In this document: positions 10,094 to 30,265 of the stretch, one piece after another
Layout of the letters: each line of letters opens with the position of its first letter
How positions within the stretch are numbered: the stretch's first letter is position 1
DNA from: a virus
Direction: 5' to 3' (one strand)
Length of the DNA stretch: 64,000 nucleotides
IMG/VR virus record: IMGVR_UViG_3300036832_001373
Coordinates: 32,001 to 96,000 of that record
Notes under the pieces: generated by a model
What the model was told of the DNA's origin: nothing
What the model saw: the letters and a program-made list of their open reading frames with translations, nothing else
Databases searched by the model: none
Position numbers and translations under genes: made by a program

Positions 10094-10464
10094 TGCGTCC
10101 TCTTATAATTGATGGAGTAGCTAGAGCTAAGATAGCTCACGTTAAGAGTTACGCCGAGGAAAATCCATATTACCCTGGAGCTACAGGTATACCTGGAGAT
10201 GACGAGAAATATGTAGCTCGTTTAGGTACTTTTAGGTGTGTATTTACTCATACTCATCACAAAGGTAACGTATACCGTCACTTAACTATATCAGTGCCAA
10301 GTGCTAAGTACCCAAACCCAGTAGCCGCTTTTATTATAGCACAAGAGTTTGGATTTATAGGATGGGATGGTGAAACTGTTGATAGAGCACCAGACACTTG
10401 GTCGATAGATGTGAATAAAAAGGAGCATTGTATCGTTCTTGTACAGGAGGTCAAAGAAGAATGA
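10093..10464 (+). CDS. Hypothetical protein
   Basis: 123 aa; RHLTISV..YPNP. Confidence 0.65.
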   Translation: MRPLIIDGVARAKIAHVKSYAEENPYYPGATGIPGDDEKYVARLGTFRCVFTHTHHKGNVYRHLTISVPSAKYPNPVAAFIIAQEFGFIGWDGETVDRAPDTWSIDVNKKEHCIVLVQEVKEE

Positions 10465-11780
10465 AAAATCTAAGACTAGCAATCTCAGCAGATTGGCACC
10501 TTTCAGACTGGAGTCAGTTCTCAGAAATTGACGGTACAGGACGTCCAAGTCGTCTACTCCAGTATAATGAACTTGCTAAAGATTTTGTAAAGTTTGCTAA
10601 GGACAATAAAGCTGATTGTGCAATTATAGCTGGAGATATTGTTGACCAGTTTGGTGTTCTAAAGCCTATGGTATCTGACGTTCTAGATTCAGTAATTACC
10701 ACTATAAGTGAGAAATTTCCTCTATTTATAACTCATGGTCAGCACGATATAAATACAAAATCCGAAGAGATAGCTAGTTACCACAGTGCTCTTTCTAGAT
10801 TTAAAAGTAAGAACAATGTAAGTTATGCGAGCGTCCCTGTTCAATATACTATTGATAAGTATACATTATTAATAGCTCCATGGAACTCAGAACATAGTAT
10901 ACCAACTGATTTAGTTGGTGATATTTTTATAGGACATGGTGCAGTTCAAGGATCTACTAATCTTGAAGGGTATAAGTTTAGCTCAGGATTCAATCAAGAA
11001 GAATTATTCAAAAGATTTAGATTATCTATTATTGGTGACATTCACAATGGGCAGGTTTTTAGAAATACTGAAGAAAGAAAGATACTCATTCCTGGAACTC
11101 CTATTCAGTTTAATTATAAAGATAGTCCAGTATGTGGATTTTGGTTATGTGAACTCATGCCAGGAGATGTGAACTGTGAGTTTGTTCCTATTGAACGCAT
11201 TCATCCTGATTTCTATCATAGGTTTCTGCTTACTACTGACGAGAAAGCTACCTCCTCAAGACTAATTCATTATAGATATAAACCAGAAAAAGTTTCAAAA
11301 GAAAAGATCTCTAAGTCTGAGTTCAAACGAGATACAACTTCTATAATAGATATAGGTTTAGAAATTATTAAGCAATCTAAGATTTCTAATCAAGATGAAA
11401 TTGCTAAACAGTTTAGATCATTAATGGATGGACTATCTTCCTCTGATAGAAAAGTTCCTAGGTCAAGACTTCTGTATCTCAATATACAAGGATTTCTTTC
11501 AATCGAAGAGTTGTCTCTAGAGATGAAAGAATTTCCAGATAACTTAGTCCTTGTAGGTAAAAACGGACATGGTAAAACTGCCTTAGTTGAAGCTATTTAT
11601 TGGGCTCTTTGCGGTAAAACAACTAAGGGAGTTTCAGCCAATGATATTATAAATTGGTATGGAAATGGGGAATGCGTGGTAAAACTGGGTATTGAAGTAG
11701 AAGGAGTTATATATCAGATTACTAGATGGAGAAAGAATGGCGTTCCTGGTTTAGAACTTAACGTTTGGAGTCCAGACTAA
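10461..11780 (+). CDS. sbcD: SbcD/Mre11 metallophosphoesterase fused to the N-terminal (Walker A) part of SbcC/Rad50
   Basis: ADWH, AGDI, GQHD, GDIH; then IQGFLSIEE and GKNGHGKT. Confidence 0.88.
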   Translation: MKNLRLAISADWHLSDWSQFSEIDGTGRPSRLLQYNELAKDFVKFAKDNKADCAIIAGDIVDQFGVLKPMVSDVLDSVITTISEKFPLFITHGQHDINTKSEEIASYHSALSRFKSKNNVSYASVPVQYTIDKYTLLIAPWNSEHSIPTDLVGDIFIGHGAVQGSTNLEGYKFSSGFNQEELFKRFRLSIIGDIHNGQVFRNTEERKILIPGTPIQFNYKDSPVCGFWLCELMPGDVNCEFVPIERIHPDFYHRFLLTTDEKATSSRLIHYRYKPEKVSKEKISKSEFKRDTTSIIDIGLEIIKQSKISNQDEIAKQFRSLMDGLSSSDRKVPRSRLLYLNIQGFLSIEELSLEMKEFPDNLVLVGKNGHGKTALVEAIYWALCGKTTKGVSANDIINWYGNGECVVKLGIEVEGVIYQITRWRKNGVPGLELNVWSPD

Positions 11781-12487
11781 TGAGAAAAGAATGGAAAAAT
11801 CAACAATATCAATTAGTCCTTGATAAATGGGAAGAAGACTACATAATAAAACTATACACAGAAGATAATTTAAGTCCGTACACTATTTCAGATAAACTAA
11901 AGTCAGAAAAAACTTTTGGAGAAAATCCTCCGGGTAAAAGTTGGATAACAAATTTCCTCACTAGAAAAATGGTATGGACTGGATCGAAGTCAGGTCGTCC
12001 CAAAAGTAAATCCCACAGAGAAAGTATTTCTATAGCTACCATTCAGAGATACTCTGATCCGGAACAAAGAAAAGTAACATCAGAGGCTAAAATTGAATTT
12101 TACTCAAGTCCTGAGAATAGAAAACTCCAAAGTGATAGGATGAGGAAGTCTATTGAAAATGGATTTACACCCTACTTATCAAAAGGGGAATTTTTAGTAA
12201 AAGAGTTTTTAATGGAAAAAGGATTTAGACATCAGTATACATTTATTACAAGTAGATCAGAAGAAGGATTTCAAAAATCTAATTTTAGATTAGATTTCTA
12301 TCATCCAGAGTTAAGAATAAATATTGAAATAGATGGAGTATCTCATGAATGGAACAATGTTATAGAAAAAGATTTAGAGAAAGATCTAATTCTTAGATCC
12401 CTCGGAGTTAGAGTATTCAGAGTTAAAGAAGATTCAAATTTGAGATCAAATATAGAACGCTTAATAAATCAAGAACTAGGAGATTGA
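11780..12487 (+). mobile_element. Free-standing DUF559/Vsr-like homing endonuclease gene splitting sbcC
   Basis: NUMOD-like KSKSHRESIS repeat; FRLDFY..INIEIDGVSH...DLEKD..L..LGVRVFRV; TAATG coupling. Confidence 0.8.
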
Positions 12488-12489
12488 CT

Positions 12490-13935
12490 ATGGGATGGAA
12501 ACCTTACACAAGTAATACTACATCAGGTACTCAAGATACGATTCATGAACTTTTAGGTCTTTCTCAAGATGAGATTAAGCTTTTGTCTTACTTCTCGGCT
12601 AAAGCTCCGTCACTTTATGGAACATTGACCAAGTCAACAAGATACGATCTCATTTCAACTATAGCAGGTATGAGCGATGTAGATAAAGCTAGAGATATTA
12701 TAACAGATCTTCATGCTAAGACTTCAAGAGAACGTATTACTTCAGAGTCAGCTATATCTACACTTAAAAATGTCGAGGCCTCAAGTAAAGCTCGTATAAA
12801 AGACTTTCTTTCTAGAAAGGACACGAGAGTTTCAGTTAATACTCAAGCAATAGAGTCTCTTAAGCTAGAAGCTGAGGAGCAAATTAAAAAGTCTAGAGAT
12901 GAAAAAGAATTACGAGAGCTTATCGGAGAATGCTATAAAAAGTATAATGAATATCAGAGGGAACTCTCTAAACTTAATACGTCAGTACATCAATTAAACT
13001 TTGAATACGAAAGTATAAACTCGTCAATAACATCTAATCGAGATAAGTTAAAGAAGGCTTTGCAGGGAAAATGTCCAACTTGTGGCCAGTCACTTCATGA
13101 TGAAAACGTAGTAAACGATCTGACACACTTACTATCTCAACTTCAAGATAGACTTCCAGATATGAGTATTGCTTTTTCTCATAGAAAGAAGATTGGAGAT
13201 ATACAAGTCAATATTGAAGACAGTGAAGCTTTGAGAGCTCTTAGAGAGAAAGAACTTGAAAATCTTCAGTACTGGAAAGGTCAACTTTCTCTTTATGAGA
13301 AGAAACTCGCAGAAGTAAATAAGGAAAAAGTTGACTACGACTCGTTGATTAACGAAGAGATGAAAAATCGTGAGGAGTTGGAAAATAAAATTAAGTTAGA
13401 GGAATTTAAGCTTGAGGAAATCTCCGATAAAGAGTCAGCACAAAATTGGATAAAACTAACATTGCTCAAACGTAATGGTTTGTTGATAACTGAACTTTCT
13501 AAGCAAGGAAAGAAAATTCTCCAGGAACAGATTAACGAGTTAACGTATGGAGAAGATATTGAAGTTTTGGTTCAAGACGATCTTAGTGTCTCAGCTAAAT
13601 TTCTTAAGAGAAAAGAGGGAGACTATGAGTCACTGTCAACTGGCCAGTCCAGAGTTGTAGATATCGTAATGATGGTAGCGTTAAATAATGTCTTTATGAA
13701 ATTCTACGGACTAGAGACGGGACCGCTAGGATTAGTTATCTTTGACGAAGTATTGTCGTTCCTGGACGAAGAGTACGTAGACCTTTGTTATGAATTAATA
13801 CAGAAAACTAATGTGCCTAAGAGAATAGTAATTACTCATGATACCAAGCTAATAAGTAGATTCAATAGTCAAATAAACGTCTCCTTGAAAGGAGAAACTA
13901 GCTCTACCTACAAGAAAAACTGGAGTTCACAATGA
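12490..13935 (+). CDS. sbcC: SbcC/Rad50 C-terminal part (coiled coil, Zn hook, ABC signature, Walker B)
   Basis: CPTCGQ, LSTGQ, IFDEVL, VITHD; own AGGAG RBS. Confidence 0.88.
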   Translation: MGWKPYTSNTTSGTQDTIHELLGLSQDEIKLLSYFSAKAPSLYGTLTKSTRYDLISTIAGMSDVDKARDIITDLHAKTSRERITSESAISTLKNVEASSKARIKDFLSRKDTRVSVNTQAIESLKLEAEEQIKKSRDEKELRELIGECYKKYNEYQRELSKLNTSVHQLNFEYESINSSITSNRDKLKKALQGKCPTCGQSLHDENVVNDLTHLLSQLQDRLPDMSIAFSHRKKIGDIQVNIEDSEALRALREKELENLQYWKGQLSLYEKKLAEVNKEKVDYDSLINEEMKNREELENKIKLEEFKLEEISDKESAQNWIKLTLLKRNGLLITELSKQGKKILQEQINELTYGEDIEVLVQDDLSVSAKFLKRKEGDYESLSTGQSRVVDIVMMVALNNVFMKFYGLETGPLGLVIFDEVLSFLDEEYVDLCYELIQKTNVPKRIVITHDTKLISRFNSQINVSLKGETSSTYKKNWSSQ

Positions 13936-14598: not shown

Positions 14599-16353
14599 AT
14601 GTTAACAGTTAGCGAACTTGAAAGGTTGATCGTTGAAGCAGCAGAAAGGTACTATCTAGATGAGTCTAGGATGTCAGATGAACAGTTTGATAAGTACGTA
14701 GAAGAGCTAAGGATACGGAATCCTTCTTCCCCTCTTCTGACTCAAGTTGGTTGGGGATGTATGAGAAAGAGTTATCGTGATAAAGTTCTTCTTCCAGTTA
14801 AGATTATAGCTTCATTACCAAAGGTTCAATACAATAATTTTCTATTAAACGGTGAGATGATAGCGTCTCCTAAAGTAGACGGTATGAGTTGTATCCTCCA
14901 CTATTCAGATGGGATACTTAAGCAAGCTGTAACCAGAGGAGACGGAGAGTTTGGAATTGATATTACTCAAAAGATGAGAAAGATAGGAGTACCAGTAGAA
15001 GTTGATTCTGTAGGAGAACAATTCATCCGAGGAGAACTTTACATAGATACAAGAACTTTTCAAAACTATCTAGCTAATGAATATGCAAACCCAAGAAATG
15101 CAGTTGCTGGAATAATTAATTCAAAAAGTTATGATAGGCTAGAGTTTGTGACTTTTGGAGCCCATCCTCAAGACGATATAACTTGCTTAAGTCACCACGA
15201 CCAAGAACTCTTAAAGATGCTTCCAGAATGGATAATTAAAACAAAGATTAATATTGAGGAGGCAAGAAGACATTCAATAGATGAAGGATATCCAATTGAT
15301 GGTATAGTACTCCATAAGACAGGTTTAGAAGATGCTATAGCTATTAAGTTTGAAACCGAGAGTATGGACACTATTGTACGTAAAATTGAGTGGGAGGAGA
15401 GACGTGGTGGTAAAATGATTCCTATAGTTTTGTATGAACCAGTTAGATTGTATGGTACTGAATGTACAAAGTGTTCTGGATTCAATTATGCTTACATAAG
15501 AGATAATCAAATTGGACCTGGAGCTAAGATACGTTTGACGAAAGCTAATGAAATTATTCCGTACATTACGGAAGTTGTCTCTCCAGGAGAGTTTACAAAT
15601 ATGGAGGACGAGTTTCATGTAGTAGAAGGAGCTCACCTATTCCATCTAAGATTCGATCAGTATAAGTACTCTTTAGAGAAGTTTGTAGCTTGGCATTATA
15701 ATATAGATGGTTTCAAGAGACCAGAAGTTATACTGTATGCACTTGGAGTTACGACTTTCAAAGGATTAGCAAGTCGCATAACATCTATGTCCAAGGAAGA
15801 TATGATTAAGGGCTTGAACAACTATGGAGTATACTCAGTAGCAGAAAAAGTTGCTGATAAACTTAAGTCTAAGATTTATATAAACAATTTCTTTCAACAG
15901 TTCGCTATAAACGGAATAGGTCCAGTTGAAGCTGGAAAGCTACAAAGGTATATACATCAATATTATACTCATGAAAGCTTTGACATGACTAGACTTGGAA
16001 TCAGAGCTAACGTTATATCTGAGTTAAGCAAGCCAGAGATAAGGAATATTATTAGAGAGTGTTTTATAGAATATCACAATGCTAACCTATGGGAAGAGAA
16101 AGTCACGGACGATATCTCTCATAAAGTTAAGTTTTGTATAAGCGGTCGTTTGCCATCTGGACTTAAGAAAGAGCTTTTTGCAAAATTGATGCCAGAGAAT
16201 TATATAATGGTCGATTATGTCGATAAAAGCGTAGTGTGTCTAATTACTAATGAGGATAGTACCTCCAAGGTTAAAACAGCTAGAAGGCTAAACGTTACAA
16301 TCCTGAGTGAAAATGAAGCCAGAGGAGCATTTAAAATTGAAACGAAGGGATGA
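14599..16353 (+). CDS. ligA: NAD-dependent DNA ligase
   Basis: YY...SDEQFD, KVDG, TRGDG, RGE, NPRNAVAG, KANEIIP, C-terminal BRCT. Confidence 0.92.
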   Translation: MLTVSELERLIVEAAERYYLDESRMSDEQFDKYVEELRIRNPSSPLLTQVGWGCMRKSYRDKVLLPVKIIASLPKVQYNNFLLNGEMIASPKVDGMSCILHYSDGILKQAVTRGDGEFGIDITQKMRKIGVPVEVDSVGEQFIRGELYIDTRTFQNYLANEYANPRNAVAGIINSKSYDRLEFVTFGAHPQDDITCLSHHDQELLKMLPEWIIKTKINIEEARRHSIDEGYPIDGIVLHKTGLEDAIAIKFETESMDTIVRKIEWEERRGGKMIPIVLYEPVRLYGTECTKCSGFNYAYIRDNQIGPGAKIRLTKANEIIPYITEVVSPGEFTNMEDEFHVVEGAHLFHLRFDQYKYSLEKFVAWHYNIDGFKRPEVILYALGVTTFKGLASRITSMSKEDMIKGLNNYGVYSVAEKVADKLKSKIYINNFFQQFAINGIGPVEAGKLQRYIHQYYTHESFDMTRLGIRANVISELSKPEIRNIIRECFIEYHNANLWEEKVTDDISHKVKFCISGRLPSGLKKELFAKLMPENYIMVDYVDKSVVCLITNEDSTSKVKTARRLNVTILSENEARGAFKIETKG

Positions 16354-16633: not shown

Positions 16634-17572
16634 ATGCTCAGAAACAGAGGAGACTTTTTCTTTGGAGAATTTTCCGATCTAAAAGTTCTTGTCAGAAGAC
16701 AAGGAAAGGAGCACATTTACTTATGTCCCTATTGCCAAGAACTTGGAAAGAAACAAGATGACAAAGGTAAATTTTACTTTAACTCAGTTAAAAATGTGGG
16801 ACATTGCTTTGCATGCGAAACTATTATAGTATCCTCAGCTTTGAGATCACTAGAAGTTATACGTCAACAATTAAACGAGAAATCTGAGGGAGAAAAATAT
16901 CTTGAGCAAGTCTTATCAATTGATAGCTGGACTTGTCCAATTGAAGAGGAACGAAGTAGTTACCATTATATGATTAATGATAGAAAAATCTTCACAGAAG
17001 TATTGAGACTGTTTAACGTTAGGGCTTGTACTCGTCCGAGGACTGGAATAGTTTTCTGTAATAAAATTTGGAAAGACGAAATTTTAGGATCTCTAACAGA
17101 TTTTCTTACTATAAGAAATGTTTTCTCACATGTTAAACATACGATATTGCGTGAGCAGGTAAAGCCATTGCTCTGGAGTACTAAACTGTTTAGTCAGAAA
17201 CTTATAGTAGTTGAAGGGACGATATCTGGACTCTCAGCGTATCAGCATTTAGACGGAGAATTGAGTCCGATAGTTTTACTTGGAAAAACTTTATCTGAGT
17301 TTCAAAAAGGCCAACTGAGAGATCTTACTTCAAAATATTATATTAAAGAAATATACATATGTTGCGATGGCGGTTACTTTGAAAATTCTTTGAAGATAGC
17401 TAAAGAAGTTTACTCAATTATAATTGGAACAGAAGTTTTAGTAACCAAACTTCCTTGGAACAAGGATCCAAACCAGTTAACGAGAAAAGAATTCAAAGAA
17501 GCCTTCAGTAAAAGTTGGTTATACGAACCGTTACGTGCATCTTTGATAAGGAAAGAGGCATACAACAAATGA
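16634..17572 (+). CDS. DNA primase (Zn finger + TOPRIM)
   Basis: CPYC...HCFAC, VVEG, CCDG, KDPN. Confidence 0.85.
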   Translation: MLRNRGDFFFGEFSDLKVLVRRQGKEHIYLCPYCQELGKKQDDKGKFYFNSVKNVGHCFACETIIVSSALRSLEVIRQQLNEKSEGEKYLEQVLSIDSWTCPIEEERSSYHYMINDRKIFTEVLRLFNVRACTRPRTGIVFCNKIWKDEILGSLTDFLTIRNVFSHVKHTILREQVKPLLWSTKLFSQKLIVVEGTISGLSAYQHLDGELSPIVLLGKTLSEFQKGQLRDLTSKYYIKEIYICCDGGYFENSLKIAKEVYSIIIGTEVLVTKLPWNKDPNQLTRKEFKEAFSKSWLYEPLRASLIRKEAYNK

Positions 17573-17790
17573 GCAACCTTGACTTCGACGTAGCTGAAAT
17601 TAAGATAGCCGAAGCTATCTCTATAGCTATGACAGGACAGGCTAGTCCAGAAGAATGTAAAAGCCTAGCTAAGGCAGCTATGCTGGCATTTCATGAATAT
17701 CTTATTTCAGTCGATTGTTGGTGGGATGAATGTCAAGAATGTGCAGTTGGTCACAAACTTAATAAATGGGTATATAAAGATGTCAAATAA
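17569..17790 (+). CDS. Hypothetical protein
   Basis: ATGA-coupled; CQEC. Confidence 0.55.
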   Translation: MSNLDFDVAEIKIAEAISIAMTGQASPEECKSLAKAAMLAFHEYLISVDCWWDECQECAVGHKLNKWVYKDVK

Positions 17791-18463
17791 AATGCTCCCA
17801 CCTATTTTTACAACACTTCATCAACTGTCGTCTGTCTCTAGATACTCTAGAGATTATATGACTCATAGAGAAAGTGTTCTTGAACACACTGGATTCGCTG
17901 GACTTTTTGCTCTTTTTATAGCTAAAAGATTAGATAAAGACGTACTTAGTCAAAACCAAGATTTCATAGGTCTTGACTTTGGAGAACTATTAACTAGAGC
18001 GTTAGTTCACGATATTGATGAAACAATTCTTGGAGACATAAGTCGTACTACAAAATACTACGCACCAGAGATTAAAGAAATGTTTAGTAAGATTGAATCA
18101 GAATCAGTAATTGATCTGACAAAGTTTATAGGAGTTGATATAGACAAAGCTTGGAGTAGAGCAAAAGATGCTACTCTCGAAGGTTATATACTTAAACTTA
18201 CTGATCTAGCAGCAGTTGTTTACATAGTATGGAGAGAAGTAACCCTTCTTGGAAATCTCTCAATGCTTAGAGTAGCTGAGGAAGTAGAACAATTTCTAAT
18301 TAAATTCAAACTACCTCATCATGACGAGTTGAGTAAATTCTTTGGAGGTATAGTTGAAGAATTAAAAAGTATAAACAGAATGGCTTTGGATAAGCACCAG
18401 GATCTACTTAAGAACAATCGAGATATGTTGTTTTCGTTTCCAACCTTCGAGAGGAAAGAATGA
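17780..18463 (+). CDS. HD-domain deoxynucleotide phosphohydrolase (YfbR/DatZ-like)
   Basis: RY...ESVLEH, ALVHDIDE..GDI, KLTD. Confidence 0.85.
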   Translation: MSNKMLPPIFTTLHQLSSVSRYSRDYMTHRESVLEHTGFAGLFALFIAKRLDKDVLSQNQDFIGLDFGELLTRALVHDIDETILGDISRTTKYYAPEIKEMFSKIESESVIDLTKFIGVDIDKAWSRAKDATLEGYILKLTDLAAVVYIVWREVTLLGNLSMLRVAEEVEQFLIKFKLPHHDELSKFFGGIVEELKSINRMALDKHQDLLKNNRDMLFSFPTFERKE

Positions 18464-20364
18464 ACCGAGAAAAAGTTAGTCAGCTAGTTAGAGATAAAAT
18501 TCTAGTCGAATTACTAGACGACAGATTGCTTTGTGCTTCTGGATTTAGTATCGACTTCTACCTAAGTAAGTCGTCCTTAAAAGAAACAATCTACCAAGAA
18601 ACAGATTTTCTAAGAAAAGAATCTAGACTTGTTGAGAGAGTCTACTGTTATGTACATGACTTAAAGGAAAAACCTAGATGCGTTATATGTAGGAAAGTGA
18701 CAAAATTTAGAGATTTCCAAGCTGGGTATCAACATACATGTTCGAGAAAATGTTTAGGCGTAGTAAAAATGAGAAATTATAACTTTGGTGAAAAGTATTC
18801 TGAATCTAGAAGACTAAGAAACATAGAAGGAGGAAAACGTTTGAGAGAATGGTCTAATTCAGAAGAAGGGATTTTAGCAAAGAGAGAACTTGGAGGATTT
18901 ACCTCCTACGGAGGAGGTTCTAAGTACGAAGACTATGCTTGGGTATATTTAGAACCATTAGGATTTGTACGAGAATTCAGAGTGAATTCTCAGGGAAAGT
19001 TTTATAAATTTGATTTCTTCAGTAAGAAGTATAATCTATTAATTGAATTAGATGGGTCAATTCATAGACATCCAAATAGGAAAACTCAAGATCAAGAAAA
19101 GACAGAAGTAGCTAAAGATCAGAAATATAACTTGTTAAGATTAATTCATAACGATAGTTTCCAGGAAATTTGGGAGTCCCTTAGAAAAGAGTTATCCACT
19201 TACTTAAGTGATGAAGAAAAAGAGGTCTTAAATATAAGATTAGTTCAAGATAAAGTTGAATTACTGTCATCTACATACGACTCTAAAATATCAGTTGAAG
19301 CCTGGGTTCATTCTAGACCAAAGGAAGAGTGGGATAATATCGATTGGCAGTCAGTTATCTCTATAGACGCACCAGTAAACGAGTTATACTCTATAGCTCT
19401 AATAATACGAGCTCCAATCTACGTAAGAGACATGATATTCTCCTTAAGAGACTATAGTGGATGGTCCCAAACAACCAGAGTATTACCAATACAAGAGATA
19501 TTAGATATCTCTTATTCTTCTAGAAACAAATTTAATAAATATATAGAGATATACAAAGAGATTCTTAAACTTAGGAGAGAAGGATTATCTCAAGATAATT
19601 TTAGACTGGAGCTGCCACTCTCATTTAGTTCAGAATTCTGTCTTAGTATCTCGTTAAGAAGTCTAGTTAAATTAGAAAAATACCTAAATAAATTTTCATT
19701 GGAAACTAAATGTTTAGGATTAAAGGAATCTCTAATCAGCATTAGTTCTCAGATAAAAGAAAGAATTCAGGAACTGCTGGAGGGTAATCAAGAGGATTAC
19801 CAGAAATGGTTTAAGAACTATTCAATACCAGAATTTTTAGGTTCTCTAGACAAAGAACTAGATATCTCTGAGAGATATGGGGATGCAATTATTATTGGTA
19901 CAAAAGTACCTCTAGCCTTAAGAGCTCAGATTATTAGACATAGAAATTTGATATTTTCAGATTCTTTTAAGAAAATTCTTCTAGAACAAGATGCAGATGA
20001 AAGACAAATTAAAGACGAAGTTCACATGGAAATATTTTCGACTGTTGAGATGTGGAACTCTATCTTAAAATCTAGACAATGTTGGATTTCTCAAGGAGAT
20101 CTTTGGTCTCCTATTATAAATAAGGCATTGAAACATACAACGATAACAGAAAAAGATCTACCATGTGCCGATGGAACTTGTCCTTATTCCAGAGATGCTG
20201 AGATACGATACACAATAAATGATCCAGGAAGTCCTTGTCCACTTTATTCTCTAAGAAATAGAAAGAAACTTACAGAACAAAAACTACAGTCATTAAGGAC
20301 TGACTTAGAGAGTAGACCAGAGTTTTGGAAGAGTATCTCAAAAGAACTAGAAAGGATGGGATAG
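18460..20364 (+). CDS. thyX: DUF559-like endonuclease fused in frame to a divergent tandem-domain ThyX-like protein
   Basis: N-term CVIC..CSRKC and FDFF..LIELDG.IH; C-term KVELLSS, QDNFRLELP, QIIRHR, LKSRQC. Confidence 0.7.
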   Translation: MNREKVSQLVRDKILVELLDDRLLCASGFSIDFYLSKSSLKETIYQETDFLRKESRLVERVYCYVHDLKEKPRCVICRKVTKFRDFQAGYQHTCSRKCLGVVKMRNYNFGEKYSESRRLRNIEGGKRLREWSNSEEGILAKRELGGFTSYGGGSKYEDYAWVYLEPLGFVREFRVNSQGKFYKFDFFSKKYNLLIELDGSIHRHPNRKTQDQEKTEVAKDQKYNLLRLIHNDSFQEIWESLRKELSTYLSDEEKEVLNIRLVQDKVELLSSTYDSKISVEAWVHSRPKEEWDNIDWQSVISIDAPVNELYSIALIIRAPIYVRDMIFSLRDYSGWSQTTRVLPIQEILDISYSSRNKFNKYIEIYKEILKLRREGLSQDNFRLELPLSFSSEFCLSISLRSLVKLEKYLNKFSLETKCLGLKESLISISSQIKERIQELLEGNQEDYQKWFKNYSIPEFLGSLDKELDISERYGDAIIIGTKVPLALRAQIIRHRNLIFSDSFKKILLEQDADERQIKDEVHMEIFSTVEMWNSILKSRQCWISQGDLWSPIINKALKHTTITEKDLPCADGTCPYSRDAEIRYTINDPGSPCPLYSLRNRKKLTEQKLQSLRTDLESRPEFWKSISKELERMG

Positions 20365-20367
20365 GAA

Positions 20368-20886
20368 ATGAGCTCACACTTCGAATGGGATGTGTACGCT
20401 GCGGGACCTTTCTTTACTTCAGCACAAAAAGTTGTAATGAATGAGGCACTAAGTGTCCTAAGATCTGCAGGACTTAAGGTTTGTGATCCGAGAGAAGTTG
20501 GACCAGTTATTACTGACATCCCCTCAGAAGAAAAACGTCCTGAACTTTTTAGACAGATTTTATCTGGGAATGTGAATGGAATCGAAAGAAGCTACGCAAT
20601 TATAGCTTGTATTGACGATCGAGATATAGGCACAGCTTGGGAACTAGGTTATAATTATGCTCTTACTAGAGCTACAGGAAAATTTCGTCCAAGAATTACA
20701 TTCTCAGCCCATGGATATGGCACCAATTTGATGATTGCACAATCTGTCAATGTGCATTGTAAGTCCTTGTCTGAACTATCATCAACTATAGGTGCAATTG
20801 GAGTCTATCTAAAAACTCGAGATGAATTCTTTCTTAGAAATTACTTTCATACTCATAAAGATACACTGGCACCTGTTACGAGTTAA
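20368..20886 (+). CDS. Nucleoside 2-deoxyribosyltransferase/nucleotide N-glycosidase (NDT/Rcl/MilB family)
   Basis: VYAAGPFF, DIGTAWELGY, NLMI. Confidence 0.85.
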   Translation: MSSHFEWDVYAAGPFFTSAQKVVMNEALSVLRSAGLKVCDPREVGPVITDIPSEEKRPELFRQILSGNVNGIERSYAIIACIDDRDIGTAWELGYNYALTRATGKFRPRITFSAHGYGTNLMIAQSVNVHCKSLSELSSTIGAIGVYLKTRDEFFLRNYFHTHKDTLAPVTS

Positions 20887-20912
20887 GGGAAAGTTAGCCC
20901 TGGAACGTTGAC
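20883..20912 (+). promoter_or_regulatory. Promoter-like motif copy 3
   Basis: TTAAGGG-aaagttagccctgga-ACGTTGAC. Confidence 0.7.
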
Positions 20913-20929
20913 TTTTGGAGGAAAAGAGT

Positions 20930-21142
20930 ATGACTTCAGAGGAGCTGGAGTTACTCGCTGAAGCTCAACATAAAAAGTTTCGTTCATCAAACGACTTAGC
21001 CCCTCCATGGAATGGTGTCCATGAGAAGCACCGAGAACGTATTCTAGCAGCTCTAGAATGGGCTTATAAAGATCGTTGGAGTACGTCGTCAAAGTTTAGG
21101 AGACTAGTGTCAAGTATACAAATGATGATTATCAAACTGTGA
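20930..21142 (+). CDS. Hypothetical protein
   Basis: GGAGG RBS before ATG 20930. Confidence 0.6.
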   Translation: MTSEELELLAEAQHKKFRSSNDLAPPWNGVHEKHRERILAALEWAYKDRWSTSSKFRRLVSSIQMMIIKL

Positions 21143-21149
21143 GGTAACA

Positions 21150-21554
21150 ATGGCTGAAGACAGGTCTCTATCAGGATTTATCAAAAATCAAAATAAAACC
21201 AAACTTCACCTTGAACTTGAGATGGTCAAGGAACTTGATAGTCTTCTGCAGACTAAGACTACAGACTATGGACCAGTCTGCGAAGTTATAGACTTGGTGT
21301 TCGATGTCACTGGTTACGCGAAAGCTCACATCCCAGGTGGAGAAGCTCAGGTAGCAGGTAGGTGTTTAGCGAAACTAGTTAGATATCTGAACCTCAGAGC
21401 TAAAGAGGTTAGTTCCGGAGCCCTTCCGGACACAGAATCCTTGGAAGATTCTCTCAGAGACTTCTTAGGAGAAACCGTTCGTCTCTATGGAGAGACGATG
21501 GCAAACCGTGGTGCAAAAATAGTTCATGTAACCCCTGAAAAGAAAGCTAGCTGA
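21150..21554 (+). CDS. Nucleotide-modification-associated domain 1 (Nmad1/DUF1599)-like all-alpha protein
   Basis: KTTDYG...KLVRYLNL...ESLEDSLRD. Confidence 0.65.
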   Translation: MAEDRSLSGFIKNQNKTKLHLELEMVKELDSLLQTKTTDYGPVCEVIDLVFDVTGYAKAHIPGGEAQVAGRCLAKLVRYLNLRAKEVSSGALPDTESLEDSLRDFLGETVRLYGETMANRGAKIVHVTPEKKAS

Positions 21555-26472: not shown

Positions 26473-26700
26473 ATGAGTCTAGGTGAAGACAGAGTGAGAG
26501 TAAAGTTCAACCCGTCTGCTGACGGCATTGTAGATAAAATCAAGCAAAAGTCAGCAGAACTTATCGATTTGTGTGAGGAAATGAAACAAAATCCTCCAGC
26601 TCAAGCTAGTTCAGAGTTTATACGTCTTATTGCTTTAGCCCAGACTTCTTATGAAGAAGCAGCAATGTGGGCAGTAAAAAGTGCGACTGTCGAAAGATGA
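26473..26700 (+). CDS. Acb2/Tad1-like helical-hairpin protein (candidate cyclic-nucleotide sponge)
   Basis: DKIKQKSAELID...RLIALAQTSYEEAAMWAVKSAT. Confidence 0.6.
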   Translation: MSLGEDRVRVKFNPSADGIVDKIKQKSAELIDLCEEMKQNPPAQASSEFIRLIALAQTSYEEAAMWAVKSATVER

Positions 26701-27314
26701 CAGACAACGATCTGTTTAATCCAGATCCAGAACTATTCGACCCAAGATTTGTAGGACCTAAAGGGTCGAATAGTCCTCATCTATACATAATTGGAGAAGC
26801 TCCTGGATACAATGAGGCGGAGCAGGGGCTTCCCTTTGTTGGAAAGGCAGGAATGGTTCTAGATAGAGCTATAGTAGAGTCAAAAATAGATTCATCAAAG
26901 ATACGGTTCTTTAATGCTATTCCGTATAGACCGTTTGAGTGGGTTGAAGGAAAGAAAGAGAATAGGACTCCATCTTCAGATGAGATTGAGAAATACTCAG
27001 TCTTCTTAAAGAAGGATATAGATAAAACAAAACCAAAGGTATTATTGTTGACTGGAGCATCAGCAATGAACGTCTTTGGTATTAGTATGGCAGTTGGATC
27101 AGCTAGATTAAGTAAATTTAAGTGGAAAGATATACCTACGTTGGTAACATACCATCCTAGCTTTGTTCTAAGAAAAAGTGGGTATGGAATAGTATCTTCA
27201 GGAACCTCTGAAAGCTTTGAAACCCTAGTTGGAGATCTCAAGAGAGCGTGGATCGGAGATCAAGAAACAGTTCAGACTAACAAGTTCTCGATAATCGATA
27301 TGGAGGAAGAATGA
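26697..27314 (+). CDS. Uracil-DNA glycosylase family 4-like
   Basis: IIGEAPGYNE..GLPFVGKAG, NRTP, TYHPS; Fe-S cluster Cys not evident. Confidence 0.88.
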   Translation: MTDNDLFNPDPELFDPRFVGPKGSNSPHLYIIGEAPGYNEAEQGLPFVGKAGMVLDRAIVESKIDSSKIRFFNAIPYRPFEWVEGKKENRTPSSDEIEKYSVFLKKDIDKTKPKVLLLTGASAMNVFGISMAVGSARLSKFKWKDIPTLVTYHPSFVLRKSGYGIVSSGTSESFETLVGDLKRAWIGDQETVQTNKFSIIDMEEE

Positions 27315-30265
27315 ACGCAGGAGGAGTTACATCTATAGATGTTGCAATTAGGAATTGGGAGAAGGTAGAAAAGGAGTTAGAAGATGACAGTGAGGTCGTT
27401 CTAGACTATGAAGCTAATAGCCTAAACACATATCATAACTCCTACTTTATAGGAGGCATAGCCCTGAAAGGAAGAAAAAGTAAAAAATGTTTTTACGTTA
27501 ACTTTTATAATTTTTGGAGAACTCCAGAGGAGTGGCCTTTTCCAAAGGAACTAAGAGAAAGAATAGGGAAATGGTTATTGTCAAAGCACTTGGTAGTATT
27601 TAATCTTCAATATGAATGCTCAGCCTCTTTGAACTTTTTCAAAGTATATCTGAGAAACGTTACAGACGTAATGATGATGAATAGGACACTCGGATATTCA
27701 GGGTCTTTGAAGGAAATAGCAGCTAGACGGCTTGGTGCGACTACTTGGAACTCTGAAGTTGATGAGTATAATACTCGTATAACTGAGCTAATCAATAGAT
27801 TGAAACCGTATAGGAAGAATCCAAGAGCAGAATGGATTTTCATTAGAAATGGAGATCCAAAGAAAAACATACCTATTCCATCAACTATAGATGAGGTTGT
27901 CAATTGGCTAACTAGGGTAGGGTCCAAAAAAGAATTAATTATAGAGTTTGAGTCGTTTAACAAACTGATAAAGAAGTTTTATAGCGACGAGAAGTATACA
28001 AAGTTTTGCAAGAGATTCTTCAAGCTTATTCTGACGAGAGCAGAGGCAAAAGATCTTGAACTAAGATTCACAGATATACCAATTGAGATTATAGCTCCGT
28101 ATGCTATTGGAGATGTTGACTTCACAGATAGACTTAAAGATGATCTCTGGAAAGAGATCCAGACTATGAAGATAGAACGTGCGGCAGAGATCTATAACTG
28201 TCAAGCCAAGCTTGGATTCGAAATGGAGTCTGCTGGAATAGCTTGGGATGACGAGTTGGCGACGTCATTGGATAAAAAGTATAGTGAAACTGCAACAGTT
28301 TGCCTTAGAAACTTGTTAATGATTCCAAAGTTCCAAAAGATTCTTCCTTCTCCAACTTTGAGTACGAAGGATAAAGATGTAGTATTTATTTCCGAATGTA
28401 GCCAGGACATTTTACAAATTCAAACTGAAACTGATACGCATAACTTAATGAAGTTTTTCAATCCGAGATCTACACATATCAAGACAAGAGACCAGTTTAG
28501 TAATCTTATAGTGACAGCTCGGTTAAGAGTTACAATGATGTTATACGAAGTCTTTAAAGAATATCAGAACTCTAAAGAAGAAGCTTTTAACAATTACCCT
28601 ATTCTGGGTCCAATCTTAGAGAGCATAATAACTCTAGAACGTACCGAAGATAGAGTTTCTTGTATAGATGCCTTAGTAAAAGGGTCAGGAAAACTTGGAG
28701 CTATGATTCAGTCTCATCTAGAGAATAGTCCAGATCTCTGGAGAGACGATAAAGGGCAGAAAATTCATCCACCAGAGATTGAAACTTTTATAAACTTCGC
28801 CAAGTGGCAATTACCTGGTATGTCAGCATTTGTTATAGAAGATCTTTATAATGCGTGGTGGCACGTAGCTGGAATCAATGTTGATGATAGAGATACTTGG
28901 ACAGATGAGTTTAAGTGGATATTCTGGTTTAGAATGTTTAAGAAGGTAATGAAGAGTCATTCAACCTACGTTTGGGGAAACGTAGGTAGAGGAAATATAG
29001 CTCTGATCAATAGGTCAGATGTTCATAAGCTATCTGCGGTAAGATTTCCAGGATGGAAAGAGAGAAAGTCTGAAGATCAGATTTGGATAAAAGAAACTCA
29101 GTTCGGTGTGTGCACAGCAGCAACAAAGAGATACCAAAGTGGAGATCATACCGTCCCTTGGGAGTCTGAGCTCATTAATCTCAGAATTAGCAGATTTAAA
29201 GATGGAGTTAGAGTCCATTACGACTACTCCCAGAACGAAGTCAGAGTGCTTGCCAAGATATCAAATTGTAAGTCTCTTCTCGAGAGATTCGAGCAGGGAA
29301 TCGATATTCATGGATCTATTGCAGCAGACGTATGGCAAAAACCTCAAAATCAAATATCAAAAGCAGAACGACGATATAGTAAAATGAGTACGTTTGCTAT
29401 TGTTTATGGAGACACGTTTCAGGGATTTGCAGTAAAATTCCTAAGTGGAAATCTTACTTTGGCAAAGAGAATATTTGATAACTTCTATGGTGCTTATCCA
29501 GAGATAAGAACCTTTATTGAAGATCAGCATAGGTTCGCACTTAAACATGGATATGTAAAAACTTTCTTTGGAGATCCTATGAGAGACATCGGACTTCCAA
29601 GAGAAGCTTTAGATCTAAACGACTGGGAGAAAGAAGAGATAATCAAGAATATCTATTCTAGGAAAGTAACCTTTGACAGAGATAGAGAACGAGATAGAGT
29701 TATAAGACAGATGACAGGAAAAGCTTTGAGAAACTCTCAAAATTACCCAATCCAAAGTACGAGCTCTACATTAGCTGGACTTGGAGCATACTATATAAAT
29801 GAGTTCTTAAAAGACAACAATATGACTTCAAGAGTTGATTGTTTCACGCATGACTCAGATGACATAGACGCTCAGATTGCAGACGTTCCTAAAATATTAT
29901 CAGTACTCCCAAAATACGCTGTCACAGAACTAGTTAGAGAATTTGATCTCCCAATTAAGACTGACTTTGAAATTGGAATCTCCGGAGACGAGTCTGTGGA
30001 GTTAAAAGAATCTAGAGTAGAAGGACCGTTAGTGGAAGCTAAGTTTCACGACAGTAAAAAGACAGCCGTTGAATCTTTAGAGAAACGTCTTTCCAAATAT
30101 GGAGTAAAATGTGAAATTAAGGTCGAAGAGGAGGTTCCAAACCTACGATCTATGAGTGAATTATTCGTTAGTAGGCGAGCGTATGCCCTCGCGATGGGAG
30201 AAACAAGAATGCTTGTTAGCGGTCATATGAAACTTGATTTTAACAATGTACGGAGAGAATCTTGA
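27311..30265 (+). CDS. polA: Family A DNA polymerase with 3'-5' exonuclease domain
   Basis: DYE (ExoI), YAIGD (ExoIII), DYSQNEVRVLA, RRYSKMSTFAIVYG, NYPIQS, HDS. Confidence 0.93.
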   Translation: MNAGGVTSIDVAIRNWEKVEKELEDDSEVVLDYEANSLNTYHNSYFIGGIALKGRKSKKCFYVNFYNFWRTPEEWPFPKELRERIGKWLLSKHLVVFNLQYECSASLNFFKVYLRNVTDVMMMNRTLGYSGSLKEIAARRLGATTWNSEVDEYNTRITELINRLKPYRKNPRAEWIFIRNGDPKKNIPIPSTIDEVVNWLTRVGSKKELIIEFESFNKLIKKFYSDEKYTKFCKRFFKLILTRAEAKDLELRFTDIPIEIIAPYAIGDVDFTDRLKDDLWKEIQTMKIERAAEIYNCQAKLGFEMESAGIAWDDELATSLDKKYSETATVCLRNLLMIPKFQKILPSPTLSTKDKDVVFISECSQDILQIQTETDTHNLMKFFNPRSTHIKTRDQFSNLIVTARLRVTMMLYEVFKEYQNSKEEAFNNYPILGPILESIITLERTEDRVSCIDALVKGSGKLGAMIQSHLENSPDLWRDDKGQKIHPPEIETFINFAKWQLPGMSAFVIEDLYNAWWHVAGINVDDRDTWTDEFKWIFWFRMFKKVMKSHSTYVWGNVGRGNIALINRSDVHKLSAVRFPGWKERKSEDQIWIKETQFGVCTAATKRYQSGDHTVPWESELINLRISRFKDGVRVHYDYSQNEVRVLAKISNCKSLLERFEQGIDIHGSIAADVWQKPQNQISKAERRYSKMSTFAIVYGDTFQGFAVKFLSGNLTLAKRIFDNFYGAYPEIRTFIEDQHRFALKHGYVKTFFGDPMRDIGLPREALDLNDWEKEEIIKNIYSRKVTFDRDRERDRVIRQMTGKALRNSQNYPIQSTSSTLAGLGAYYINEFLKDNNMTSRVDCFTHDSDDIDAQIADVPKILSVLPKYAVTELVREFDLPIKTDFEIGISGDESVELKESRVEGPLVEAKFHDSKKTAVESLEKRLSKYGVKCEIKVEEEVPNLRSMSELFVSRRAYALAMGETRMLVSGHMKLDFNNVRRES

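Follow-up and report, generated by a model that had tools for sequence, protein, structure and literature searches.

Does a phage that carries a degenerate relative of the flavin-dependent thymidylate synthase ThyX among its replication genes make ordinary thymidylate or some other pyrimidine? The question is raised by a stretch of 64,000 nucleotides from an uncultured soil phage (the window), bases 32001-96000 of the 147.5-kb IMG/VR virus record IMGVR_UViG_3300036832_001373, which is rated about 70% complete. The original prediction described a cluster of four genes at 17780-21554, encoding an HD phosphohydrolase, a ThyX-like protein, an NDT-family enzyme (nucleoside 2-deoxyribosyltransferase) and an Nmad1-like protein. 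It also proposed that the phage makes a non-canonical pyrimidine rather than only thymidine monophosphate (dTMP). Three of these genes (HD, ThyX-like and NDT) proved to be real and linked, and the Nmad1-like member found no support. We favor, with moderate confidence, the reading that the trio is a pre-replicative module that makes a 5-substituted deoxyuridine monophosphate (dUMP) and reroutes deoxynucleotides, most likely supplying a thymidine substitute. The observations behind it concern folds, family membership, residue conservation, gene linkage and cultured carriers, and from them we infer all substrates and products.

An open reading frame (ORF) check placed all ORFs of the module on the plus strand, where they had been predicted, and the trio sits inside the replication gene block of the window. 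Its features are the following:

17693-18463, plus strand: YfbR-like HD phosphohydrolase, 256 residues from the first ATG (Pfam PF12917, PHROG 7076)
18460-20364, plus strand: 634-residue ORF, a DUF559 module followed by the ThyX-like part
18460-19239, plus strand: N-terminal DUF559/Vsr-like homing-endonuclease module, fused in frame to the ThyX-like domain
19240-19833, plus strand: ThyX-like repeat 1, a complete ThyX fold (AlphaFold2 model, VIA-align, Foldseek and hidden Markov model (HMM) alignments)
19855-20142, plus strand: ThyX-like repeat 2, a reduced core of about 95 residues (AlphaFold2 model of the second half)
20143-20364, plus strand: C-terminal helical extension, family-specific (family alignments)
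20368-20886, plus strand: NDT-family protein of 172 residues (Pfam PF05014)

A doubled ThyX-like protein with complementary repeats

In a Pfam scan of the 634-residue ORF, DUF559 was the sole match (residues 172-236) and the ThyX family PF02511 was not listed. On the ThyX-like part, Thy1 (PF02511) scored 13.6 bits, below its cut-off of 24.8, and TIGR02170 scored 14.3 bits, below its cut-off of 87.9. The fold is nonetheless that of ThyX in an AlphaFold2 model of ORF residues 261-634, built on 24 homologues, with a predicted local distance difference test score (pLDDT) of 85.7. Repeat 1 (model residues 1-198) aligned by VIA-align with the ThyX and PolB structures 2af6, 5chp, 4fzb, 4p5a and 3ah5 at Z 11.2-13.6, over 170-183 residues and with root-mean-square deviations of 2.8-4.2, the next unrelated structure reaching Z 4.3. 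A Foldseek search with the full model retrieved ThyX and PolB only (E 4e-6). In a separate model of the other 171 residues (pLDDT 89.3), the same five structures came out on top at Z 5.7-6.8 over about 95 residues (next, 4.4), and the top Foldseek matches were all ThyX (E 6e-3 to 4e-2). A profile-profile comparison of the two halves with hhalign gave no significant similarity, and neither the single protein nor the profile of the second half had a match in a sequence search of the PDB. The tandem architecture is thus a predicted one, which rests on modelled structure and motif-level alignment and not on a sequence duplication signal. The degenerate tandem ThyX of the original prediction finds its support at the level of these folds, and both motifs quoted for it are present, FSLRDYSGWSQTTR at 19438-19479 and PLALRAQIIRHRN at 19909-19947.

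The two repeats have kept different parts of the ThyX active site. According to the HMM alignment to Thermotoga maritima TM0449, the equivalents of R80, S88 (as Thr), R90, R147 and R165 are present in repeat 1 and those of R78, H79, R174 and H178 are missing, the R174 and H178 positions being hydrophobic. In repeat 2, Q75 and R78-H79-R80 have equivalents and the AQxD/E helix is retained, but S88, R90, R147 and R165 have none; HMMER pairs PLALRAQIIRHR of this repeat with PIFVARQWFRHR of TM0449. The RHRx7SxR motif is intact in neither: repeat 1 reads SLRDYSGWSQTTR, which retains only the third and the final Arg, with Thr at the Ser position, and repeat 2 reads RHRNLIFSDSF, with RHR kept and SxR lost. 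The R147 equivalent is R122 of repeat 1, replaced by Lys in the SP-15 subgroup, and the invariant R279 of repeat 2 would correspond to R174, judging from the helix register and the AQxD/E motif that follows. In these alignments, then, each repeat retains ThyX motifs lost by the other. Active sites of ThyX lie between subunits. Since the repeats are complementary as well, the single chain looks like a pseudo-heterodimer with fewer, composite sites. In such sites repeat 1 would supply the residues that hold the nucleotide phosphate, and repeat 2 the flavin-binding RHR and the Arg that activates C5 of uracil. In T. maritima ThyX, R174 activates dUMP and S88, R90 and Y91 assist methylene transfer (PMC8316439).

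It could be argued that the protein is a non-catalytic or regulatory relic of ThyX, which only binds nucleotide or flavin, for instance to sense it or to inhibit thymidylate synthesis in the host, and leaves the HD and NDT enzymes to remodel the pool alone. Neither repeat has the full catalytic set, the Tyr91 equivalent is Val81 and the Cys-rich tail is variable, as a relic might show. However, 18 columns are invariant across 11 distant members that are only 20-35% identical. They include R70, R80 and R140 in repeat 1 and Q230, R233 and R279 in repeat 2, and among them are the equivalents of R80, R90, R165, Q75, R78 and, probably, R174. This pattern fits composite active sites better, and the family is large and under clear constraint, so that we regard a relic as quite improbable.

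The C-terminal extension matched no known fold. It contains the invariant residues D319 and R323 and three of four conserved cysteines (in LPCxDGxCPY and DPGxPCP motifs), the fourth lying in repeat 2 at 20068-20106. All four are invariant in most members of the family, absent in YerA41 and Vibrio phage 150E35-1 and mostly absent in SP-15 and GXN1. Because these phages do without them, the cysteines probably form a structural metal site that is dispensable and not catalytically essential. An Fe-S cluster as a general catalytic feature was rejected for the same reason.

The HD phosphohydrolase and the NDT-family enzyme

The two partners of the ThyX-like protein are recognized without difficulty. 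The HD protein matches the YfbR-like family PF12917 with 62.7 bits (cut-off 25.9, E 4.6e-17), as well as PHROG 7076, which bears out the phosphohydrolase originally proposed. The start first assigned to it, 17780, is an internal ATG of the ORF; initiation there gives a protein of about 227 residues, nearer to the family length. Lin2634, YfbR and DatZ are the nearest solved structures. Residues H65, H106-D107, E110, D115 and D171 are invariant in all 56 family members compared, and the protein retains, at the sequence level, the metal ligands H...HD...D together with the equivalents of YfbR E72 and D77. These comparisons leave its substrate as either a mono- or a triphosphate.

The NDT protein belongs to PF05014 (50.7 bits against a cut-off of 28.8, E 2.4e-13) and its nearest structure is the N-deoxyribosyltransferase 6evs (6.9e-09). 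The catalytic Glu92 and its partners Tyr10 and Asp86, as well as Asn120, are kept in 59-60 of 60 family members. Asp86, six residues ahead of the Glu, and Asn120, in an NLM motif, are placed as in the true transferase 6evs. In NDT-superfamily enzymes of the DmtZ/DNPH1 type, which act on monophosphates, the Asp and Asn that bind the 5'-hydroxyl of the nucleoside in true deoxyribosyltransferases are replaced by small uncharged residues that leave room for the 5'-phosphate (PMC12884076). Because both residues are present in the window protein, it appears unlike the monophosphate-cleaving MilB/DNPH1 type. The NDT/N-glycosidase assignment of the original prediction therefore stands as to family, and a monophosphate N-hydrolase like MilB, DNPH1 or DmtZ is disfavored by this sequence-level test. 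Both enzymes keep their catalytic residues. The simplest flow for a YfbR-like HD enzyme beside such an NDT would run from deoxynucleoside monophosphate (dNMP) to deoxynucleoside and then to base exchange or hydrolysis.

In passing, gp086 of YerA41 (L001:10119-10655), annotated as a mannosyltransferase, matches the NDT query (phmmer 3e-07, tblastn 1e-4) and is more likely an NDT-family protein.

Linkage of the three genes across phages

At E <= 1e-3 the ThyX-like family comprises 266 representatives at 50% identity, 119 of them with E <= 1e-30, and 55 IMG/VR loci were fetched for a survey of their neighborhoods. NDT adjoins the ThyX-like gene in essentially all 55 loci and HD does so in 54. The three genes are contiguous and co-directional in 53 of the 55 viral contigs; the exceptions are one contig (L059) with a gap of 0.4 kb ahead of NDT and another (L057) that shows no HD gene. 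After dereplication at 70% identity, all three genes were found in 13 of 13 lineages. The trio is also present in contigs L005, where the genes are adjacent, and P0022. Three gene orders occur, ThyX-NDT-HD (37 rows of the survey), HD-ThyX-NDT (13) and ThyX-HD-NDT (3), and they track clades in a quick tree. The majority of the loci come from a clade in which Pol III alpha, RNase T and a DUF6378 protein are encoded close by, and some add a HAD phosphatase and a short-chain reductase.

Both partners are rare elsewhere: the NDT query has only 6 matches, and the HD query 38, in 50,697 records from cultured phages. Given this rarity and the adjacency in 53 of 55 contigs, the co-occurrence of the trio is far beyond chance. 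One could still suppose that these are unrelated genes of the replication module that happen to lie between primase and recombination genes, since the trio is found inside the replication block both in the window and in the Pol III alpha-type clade. Yet its adjacency outlasts three gene orders, several polymerase types and divergence to about 20-30% identity, which makes incidental clustering highly improbable.

A separate arrangement was seen in Geobacillus phage GR1 (L066:3456-6229), where genes for NDT, thioredoxin, HD and a 'glycosyltransferase' are clustered and no ThyX-like gene is detectable, perhaps as a related cassette for nucleotide or DNA modification.

Cultured carriers and modified thymidine

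A megablast search of the region against cultured phages gave no match. At the protein level, tblastn found the ThyX-like protein in YerA41 and its near-twin GN1, phiXF1, Carin-5, SP-15 and Streptococcus phage GXN1, with phmmer values of 5e-36 for YerA41, 8e-55 for phiXF1 and 2e-13 for SP-15. SP-15 gp130, YerA41 gp081, phiXF1 gp88 and Carin-5 gene 049 ('thymidylate synthase') are thus members of the family. For PolA, HD, the ThyX-like protein and NDT alike, the nearest cultured relative is phiXF1. A 384-residue protein of Vibrio phage 150E35-1 (L065:2222-3373, CAH9017210.1), annotated 'conserved hypothetical protein', is a divergent doubled-ThyX member as well (hhalign probability 98.6%); it sits between HD and NDT genes, and its RHR motif is changed to RHA. 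The module is probably present in Vibrio phages 1.031.O and Va2 as well.

Several of these carriers have unusual DNA. In SP-15, YerA41 and Carin-5, 50-75% of T is replaced by a hypermodified uracil with a pentyl linker (PMC5977210, PMC12686479), the proportion being about 70-75% in YerA41 and Carin-5 (PMC9023294, PMC12686479). The SP-15 base is 5-(4',5'-dihydroxypentyl)uracil bearing glucose and phosphoglucuronolactone (PMC5977210). For SP-15 gp130, a role as hydroxymethyl-dUMP synthase has been no more than a hypothesis (PMC5977210). A further thymidylate synthase homologue is encoded in SP-15 and in Carin-5 (PMC5977210, PMC12686479), and in SP-15 the gene 9 product was proposed as the ordinary thymidylate synthase (PMC5977210). 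The best cultured matches of the family-A polymerase (PolA) of the window are those of phiXF1, RHph_TM30, RP13, phiLo, LIS04, SP-15 and YerA41, members of the SP15-like group of T-modified phages; according to a 2026 paper all phages with SP15-like polymerases have "a thymidylate synthase homolog" (PMC13697223). The literature that we searched names the ThyX-like protein only in those words, and no description of the doubled architecture, of the HD/NDT linkage or of pentyl-chain biosynthesis was found in it. The family shared with SP-15, YerA41 and Carin-5 and the placement of PolA both speak for a non-canonical pyrimidine rather than only dTMP, a proposal that remains unproven.

A candidate thymidine-replacement module

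The module could work as follows. The ThyX-like protein would still bind a pyrimidine nucleoside monophosphate and flavin in its composite sites, which the two unequal repeats together rebuild, and would attach to C5 of dUMP a carbon substituent other than a plain methyl. The YfbR-like HD enzyme would dephosphorylate deoxynucleotides, giving deoxynucleosides whose glycosidic bond the NDT-type enzyme would break or exchange. The joint effect would be either to deplete thymidine nucleotides or to return deoxyribose to the pathway. Host kinases would phosphorylate the product, and the family-A polymerase of the phage, nearest to the SP15-like polymerases, would build it into DNA.

The main competitor is an ordinary supply of thymidylate, in which the doubled protein is a divergent but genuine flavin-dependent dTMP synthase. 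The HD and NDT enzymes would then salvage dNMPs from host DNA, swap bases and feed deoxyuridine (dU) or thymidine (dT) into the thymidine triphosphate (dTTP) pool of an AT-rich phage; the region has 33-40% GC. Several observations count for this alternative and against a modified base. Between the two repeats the equivalents of R78-H79-R80, S88/R90, R147, R165 and, probably, R174 all survive in a ThyX fold, and the surviving phosphate-binding and flavin-motif residues are equally compatible with ordinary ThyX chemistry. A search of the record found no ThyA, canonical ThyX, dUTPase or dCMP deaminase, nor any thymidylate kinase, thymidine kinase or deoxynucleoside kinase, although such absences are weak evidence in a record that is only about 70% complete. 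As no other thymidylate synthase was found, the ThyX-like protein could be the only route of the phage to dTMP. YerA41, which lists its ThyX-like protein as sole thymidylate synthase homologue, nevertheless keeps about 30% of T (PMC12686479). In addition, most contigs with the trio come from one Pol III alpha-type phage clade without known DNA composition. The contig itself, like dozens of related ones, was assembled from ordinary metagenome sequencing, whereas the DNA of YerA41 and Carin-5 resists ordinary sequencing (PMC7354516, PMC12686479). This argues against a very bulky modification of the YerA41/Carin-5 type; any modification in this phage may be small, partial or absent.

Other evidence does not fit a plain dTMP synthase. 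The protein scores far under the ThyX family cut-offs, and ordinary thyX genes are not tied obligately to genes for an HD nucleotidase and an NDT. In SP-15 and Carin-5 the second thymidylate synthase homologue would make another dTMP synthase redundant (PMC5977210, PMC12686479), and every cultured carrier whose DNA has been analyzed has hypermodified T. On this balance we consider that dTMP supply is a somewhat unlikely explanation of the module, and we retain thymidine replacement as the preferred one.

A more specific form of thymidine replacement, which we put forward as doubtful, is that the trio builds the pentyl side chain of SP-15-type bases from 2-deoxyribose, which would donate the five carbons. 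The HD enzyme would make deoxynucleosides from dNMPs, the NDT would release the deoxyribosyl unit or hold it as an enzyme intermediate, and the doubled ThyX-like flavoenzyme would reductively couple its C1 aldehyde to C5 of dUMP. The direct use of formaldehyde by T. maritima ThyX, via a flavin N5 carbinolamine, is a precedent for aldehyde coupling (PMC8316439). The nucleoside-type pocket of the NDT, as read from its residues, was counted as indirect support. Walker and Mandel reportedly described in 1978, to go by the title of their paper, the entry of ribose label into the SP-15 side chain (cited in PMC5977210). The masses also agree: dU + deoxyribose + 2H - H2O gives 346.3 for a trihydroxypentyl product, equal to the YerA41 core fragment reported as 346 = 242 + 104, a value that is an m/z of ambiguous charge state (PMC12686479). 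The Carin-5 core, 242 + 88 = 330.3, equals dihydroxypentyl-dU, with one oxygen fewer (PMC12686479).

The presence of a reductase near the ThyX-like gene does not cleanly track this oxygen count. In SP-15, Carin-5 and some contigs, a short-chain reductase is encoded next to the ThyX-like gene or close by; YerA41 has three of them about 50 kb away, and none was found in phiXF1, GXN1 or the window record. For lack of a clean correlation, the reductase was rejected as a fourth core component and as a marker of dihydroxy or trihydroxy linkers.

The replacement of T by bulky 5-substituted uracils in SP-15, YerA41 and Carin-5 serves restriction evasion and confers resistance to standard sequencing, and the construction of the five-carbon linker has been a question since the 1970s. 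To this the present analysis adds the doubled-ThyX architecture with complementary motif retention, its tight association, in many phage lineages, with an HD nucleotidase and a deoxyribosyltransferase of the nucleoside type, and easily grown carriers, namely phiXF1 and several Vibrio phages. The trio is a concrete candidate pathway of three enzymes that can be reconstituted in vitro. If a modified base is made, the metagenomic carriers would mark a widespread and unrecognized class of modified phage DNA; if only dTMP is made, the protein would still be an unusual pseudo-heterodimeric form of ThyX.

The endonuclease fusion and a possible exchange of ThyX-like alleles

Residues 1-260 of the 634-residue ORF form the DUF559/Vsr-like module (Pfam DUF559, 1.1e-06 over residues 172-236), which also matches a PHROG of HNH/homing endonucleases and contains, at 18646-18753, a Cys-rich segment that is a putative zinc finger. 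Its homologue in YerA41, gp080, has an ORF of its own directly ahead of gp081. In the window (19219-19242), the sequence AAGAGG stands 8 nucleotides upstream of an in-frame ATA (19234) that aligns with the start Met of the family. As these elements are present with no stop codon ahead of the ATA, the fusion looks like the read-through of a once-separate gene pair. Either the ATG of the ThyX-like domain may have been lost, or translation of the domain may begin at a non-canonical codon. The best explanation of the DUF559 part is a homing endonuclease that became fused to the enzyme and stands outside the chemistry.

In a close relative (L063), the NDT, 134-residue, 374-residue, RecA, NYN and exonuclease proteins are 82-89% identical to those of the window, whereas the ThyX-like gene stands alone, without the endonuclease module, and is only 33% identical. 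Nucleotide similarity between the two (L063:10-2179 against window 18460-20886) begins exactly at the start of NDT, ahead of which the relative has an extra gene of 171 codons. This suggests an endonuclease-associated allele swap. With so divergent an allele amid such similar flanks, distant members of the ThyX-like family appear to be interchangeable within the same module.

A second, free-standing DUF559/Vsr-like gene was noticed at 11765-12487, between an ORF for Mre11 plus the N-terminal part of Rad50 (10428-11780) and one for the C-terminal part of Rad50 (12484-13935). Its position between the two halves points to an SbcCD/Rad50-like gene split by a mobile endonuclease.

Neighboring genes

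Around the trio, the window has the following genes:

14599-16353, plus strand: NAD-dependent ligase of the replication block
16634-17572, plus strand: primase-like gene upstream of HD (PHROG, 3.7e-14)
20915-21142, plus strand: ORF of 75 codons with a TTG start, a doubtful gene
21150-21554, plus strand: 134-residue protein, the supposed Nmad1-like member, with homologues in near relatives only
directly after the 134-residue ORF in gene order, plus strand: 374-residue protein with a gp32-like lead only
between the 374-residue gene and UDG, plus strand: UvsX/RecA-like recombinase, NYN nuclease and 5'-3' exonuclease
26667-27314, plus strand: UDG
27311-30265, plus strand: PolA

The cluster had been placed between a primase and a single-stranded DNA-binding protein (SSB). 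The upstream primase-like gene agrees with this, and the 'SSB' comes down to the gp32-like hint for the 374-residue protein in a protein atlas. The 75-codon ORF had no family match in Pfam, NCBIfam or PHROG and was found in its own genome only; the relative L063 has merely a 44-nucleotide gap at its position. A linkage of UDG and PolA had been mentioned as occurring in SPO1-like phages. In the window the two are separate ORFs with a 4-nucleotide overlap and not a fusion, whereas in published SP15-like polymerases the UDG domain is fused to the polymerase (PMC13697223).

The 134-residue protein had no Pfam match even at E <= 10 and none in NCBIfam or PHROG, and its homologues, in near relatives only, are 50-90% identical. 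Against a DUF6378-like cluster of neighbors, hmmsearch and hhalign were not significant (probability under 1%); three short collinear motifs common to both are a lead without significance. Membership in Nmad1 (DUF1599) or DUF6378 is not supported by any significant profile match. The small DUF6378-like protein itself (motifs ERNxxYGDNY, AKLTRY and DSxHD) is encoded next to RNase T and Pol III alpha and within a few genes of the trio at L029:4608-4955 and 44 other loci.

Comparison with known systems

The closest systems are those of SP-15, YerA41 and Carin-5, whose proteins gp130, gp081 and gene 049 belong to the same family and have the same two-repeat layout. SP-15 and YerA41 have an NDT gene near the ThyX-like gene, as in the window (in Carin-5, no NDT match was found at E<=1e-4), and the SP15-like PolA of all three belongs to the group nearest to the window PolA. 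In these phages, however, the YfbR-like HD gene lies elsewhere in the genome, so that the trio is dispersed and not contiguous as in the window. The window protein is 20-32% identical to five aligned members from cultured phages; it has all four cysteines, which YerA41 lacks, as well as the DUF559 fusion.

In composition the trio resembles the Z-genome (2-aminoadenine) module, in which the synthase PurZ, the HD dATPase DatZ and the NDT-family enzyme DmtZ replace adenine (PMC12884076): in both, a replacement-nucleotide synthase stands with a YfbR/DatZ-like HD enzyme and an NDT-family enzyme. The Z-genome module replaces a purine, whereas the trio would concern a pyrimidine. Moreover, DmtZ is a dAMP hydrolase and deoxyribose 5-phosphate transferase that acts on monophosphates and lacks the Asp/Asn pair that binds the 5'-hydroxyl, which the window NDT keeps.

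Canonical ThyX (T. maritima TM0449, M. tuberculosis ThyX) shares the fold (Z up to 13.6), and several of its phosphate-binding and flavin-binding residues, with a candidate for the uracil-activating Arg, are recognizable in the window protein. Canonical ThyX is, however, a single domain that forms a homotetramer, whereas the window protein has two unequal repeats per chain, an RHRx7SxR motif split across them, scores below the cut-offs, a Cys-rich tail and an obligate linkage to HD and NDT. Among the best structural matches is PolB (4p5a), which methylates C5 of UMP/dUMP in polyoxin biosynthesis. It shows the ThyX fold recruited for a C5 modification outside housekeeping, although it is a single-domain enzyme of a bacterial antibiotic pathway and still methylates. 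The 5-hydroxymethyluracil pathway of Bacillus phages SPO1, phi-e and SP8 relies on a ThyA-type dUMP hydroxymethylase together with activities that destroy dTTP/dUTP and dTMP. Like the proposed module, it replaces T before replication with a 5-substituted uracil and removes thymidine nucleotides, but it does so with a ThyA-fold enzyme, other hydrolases and no NDT.

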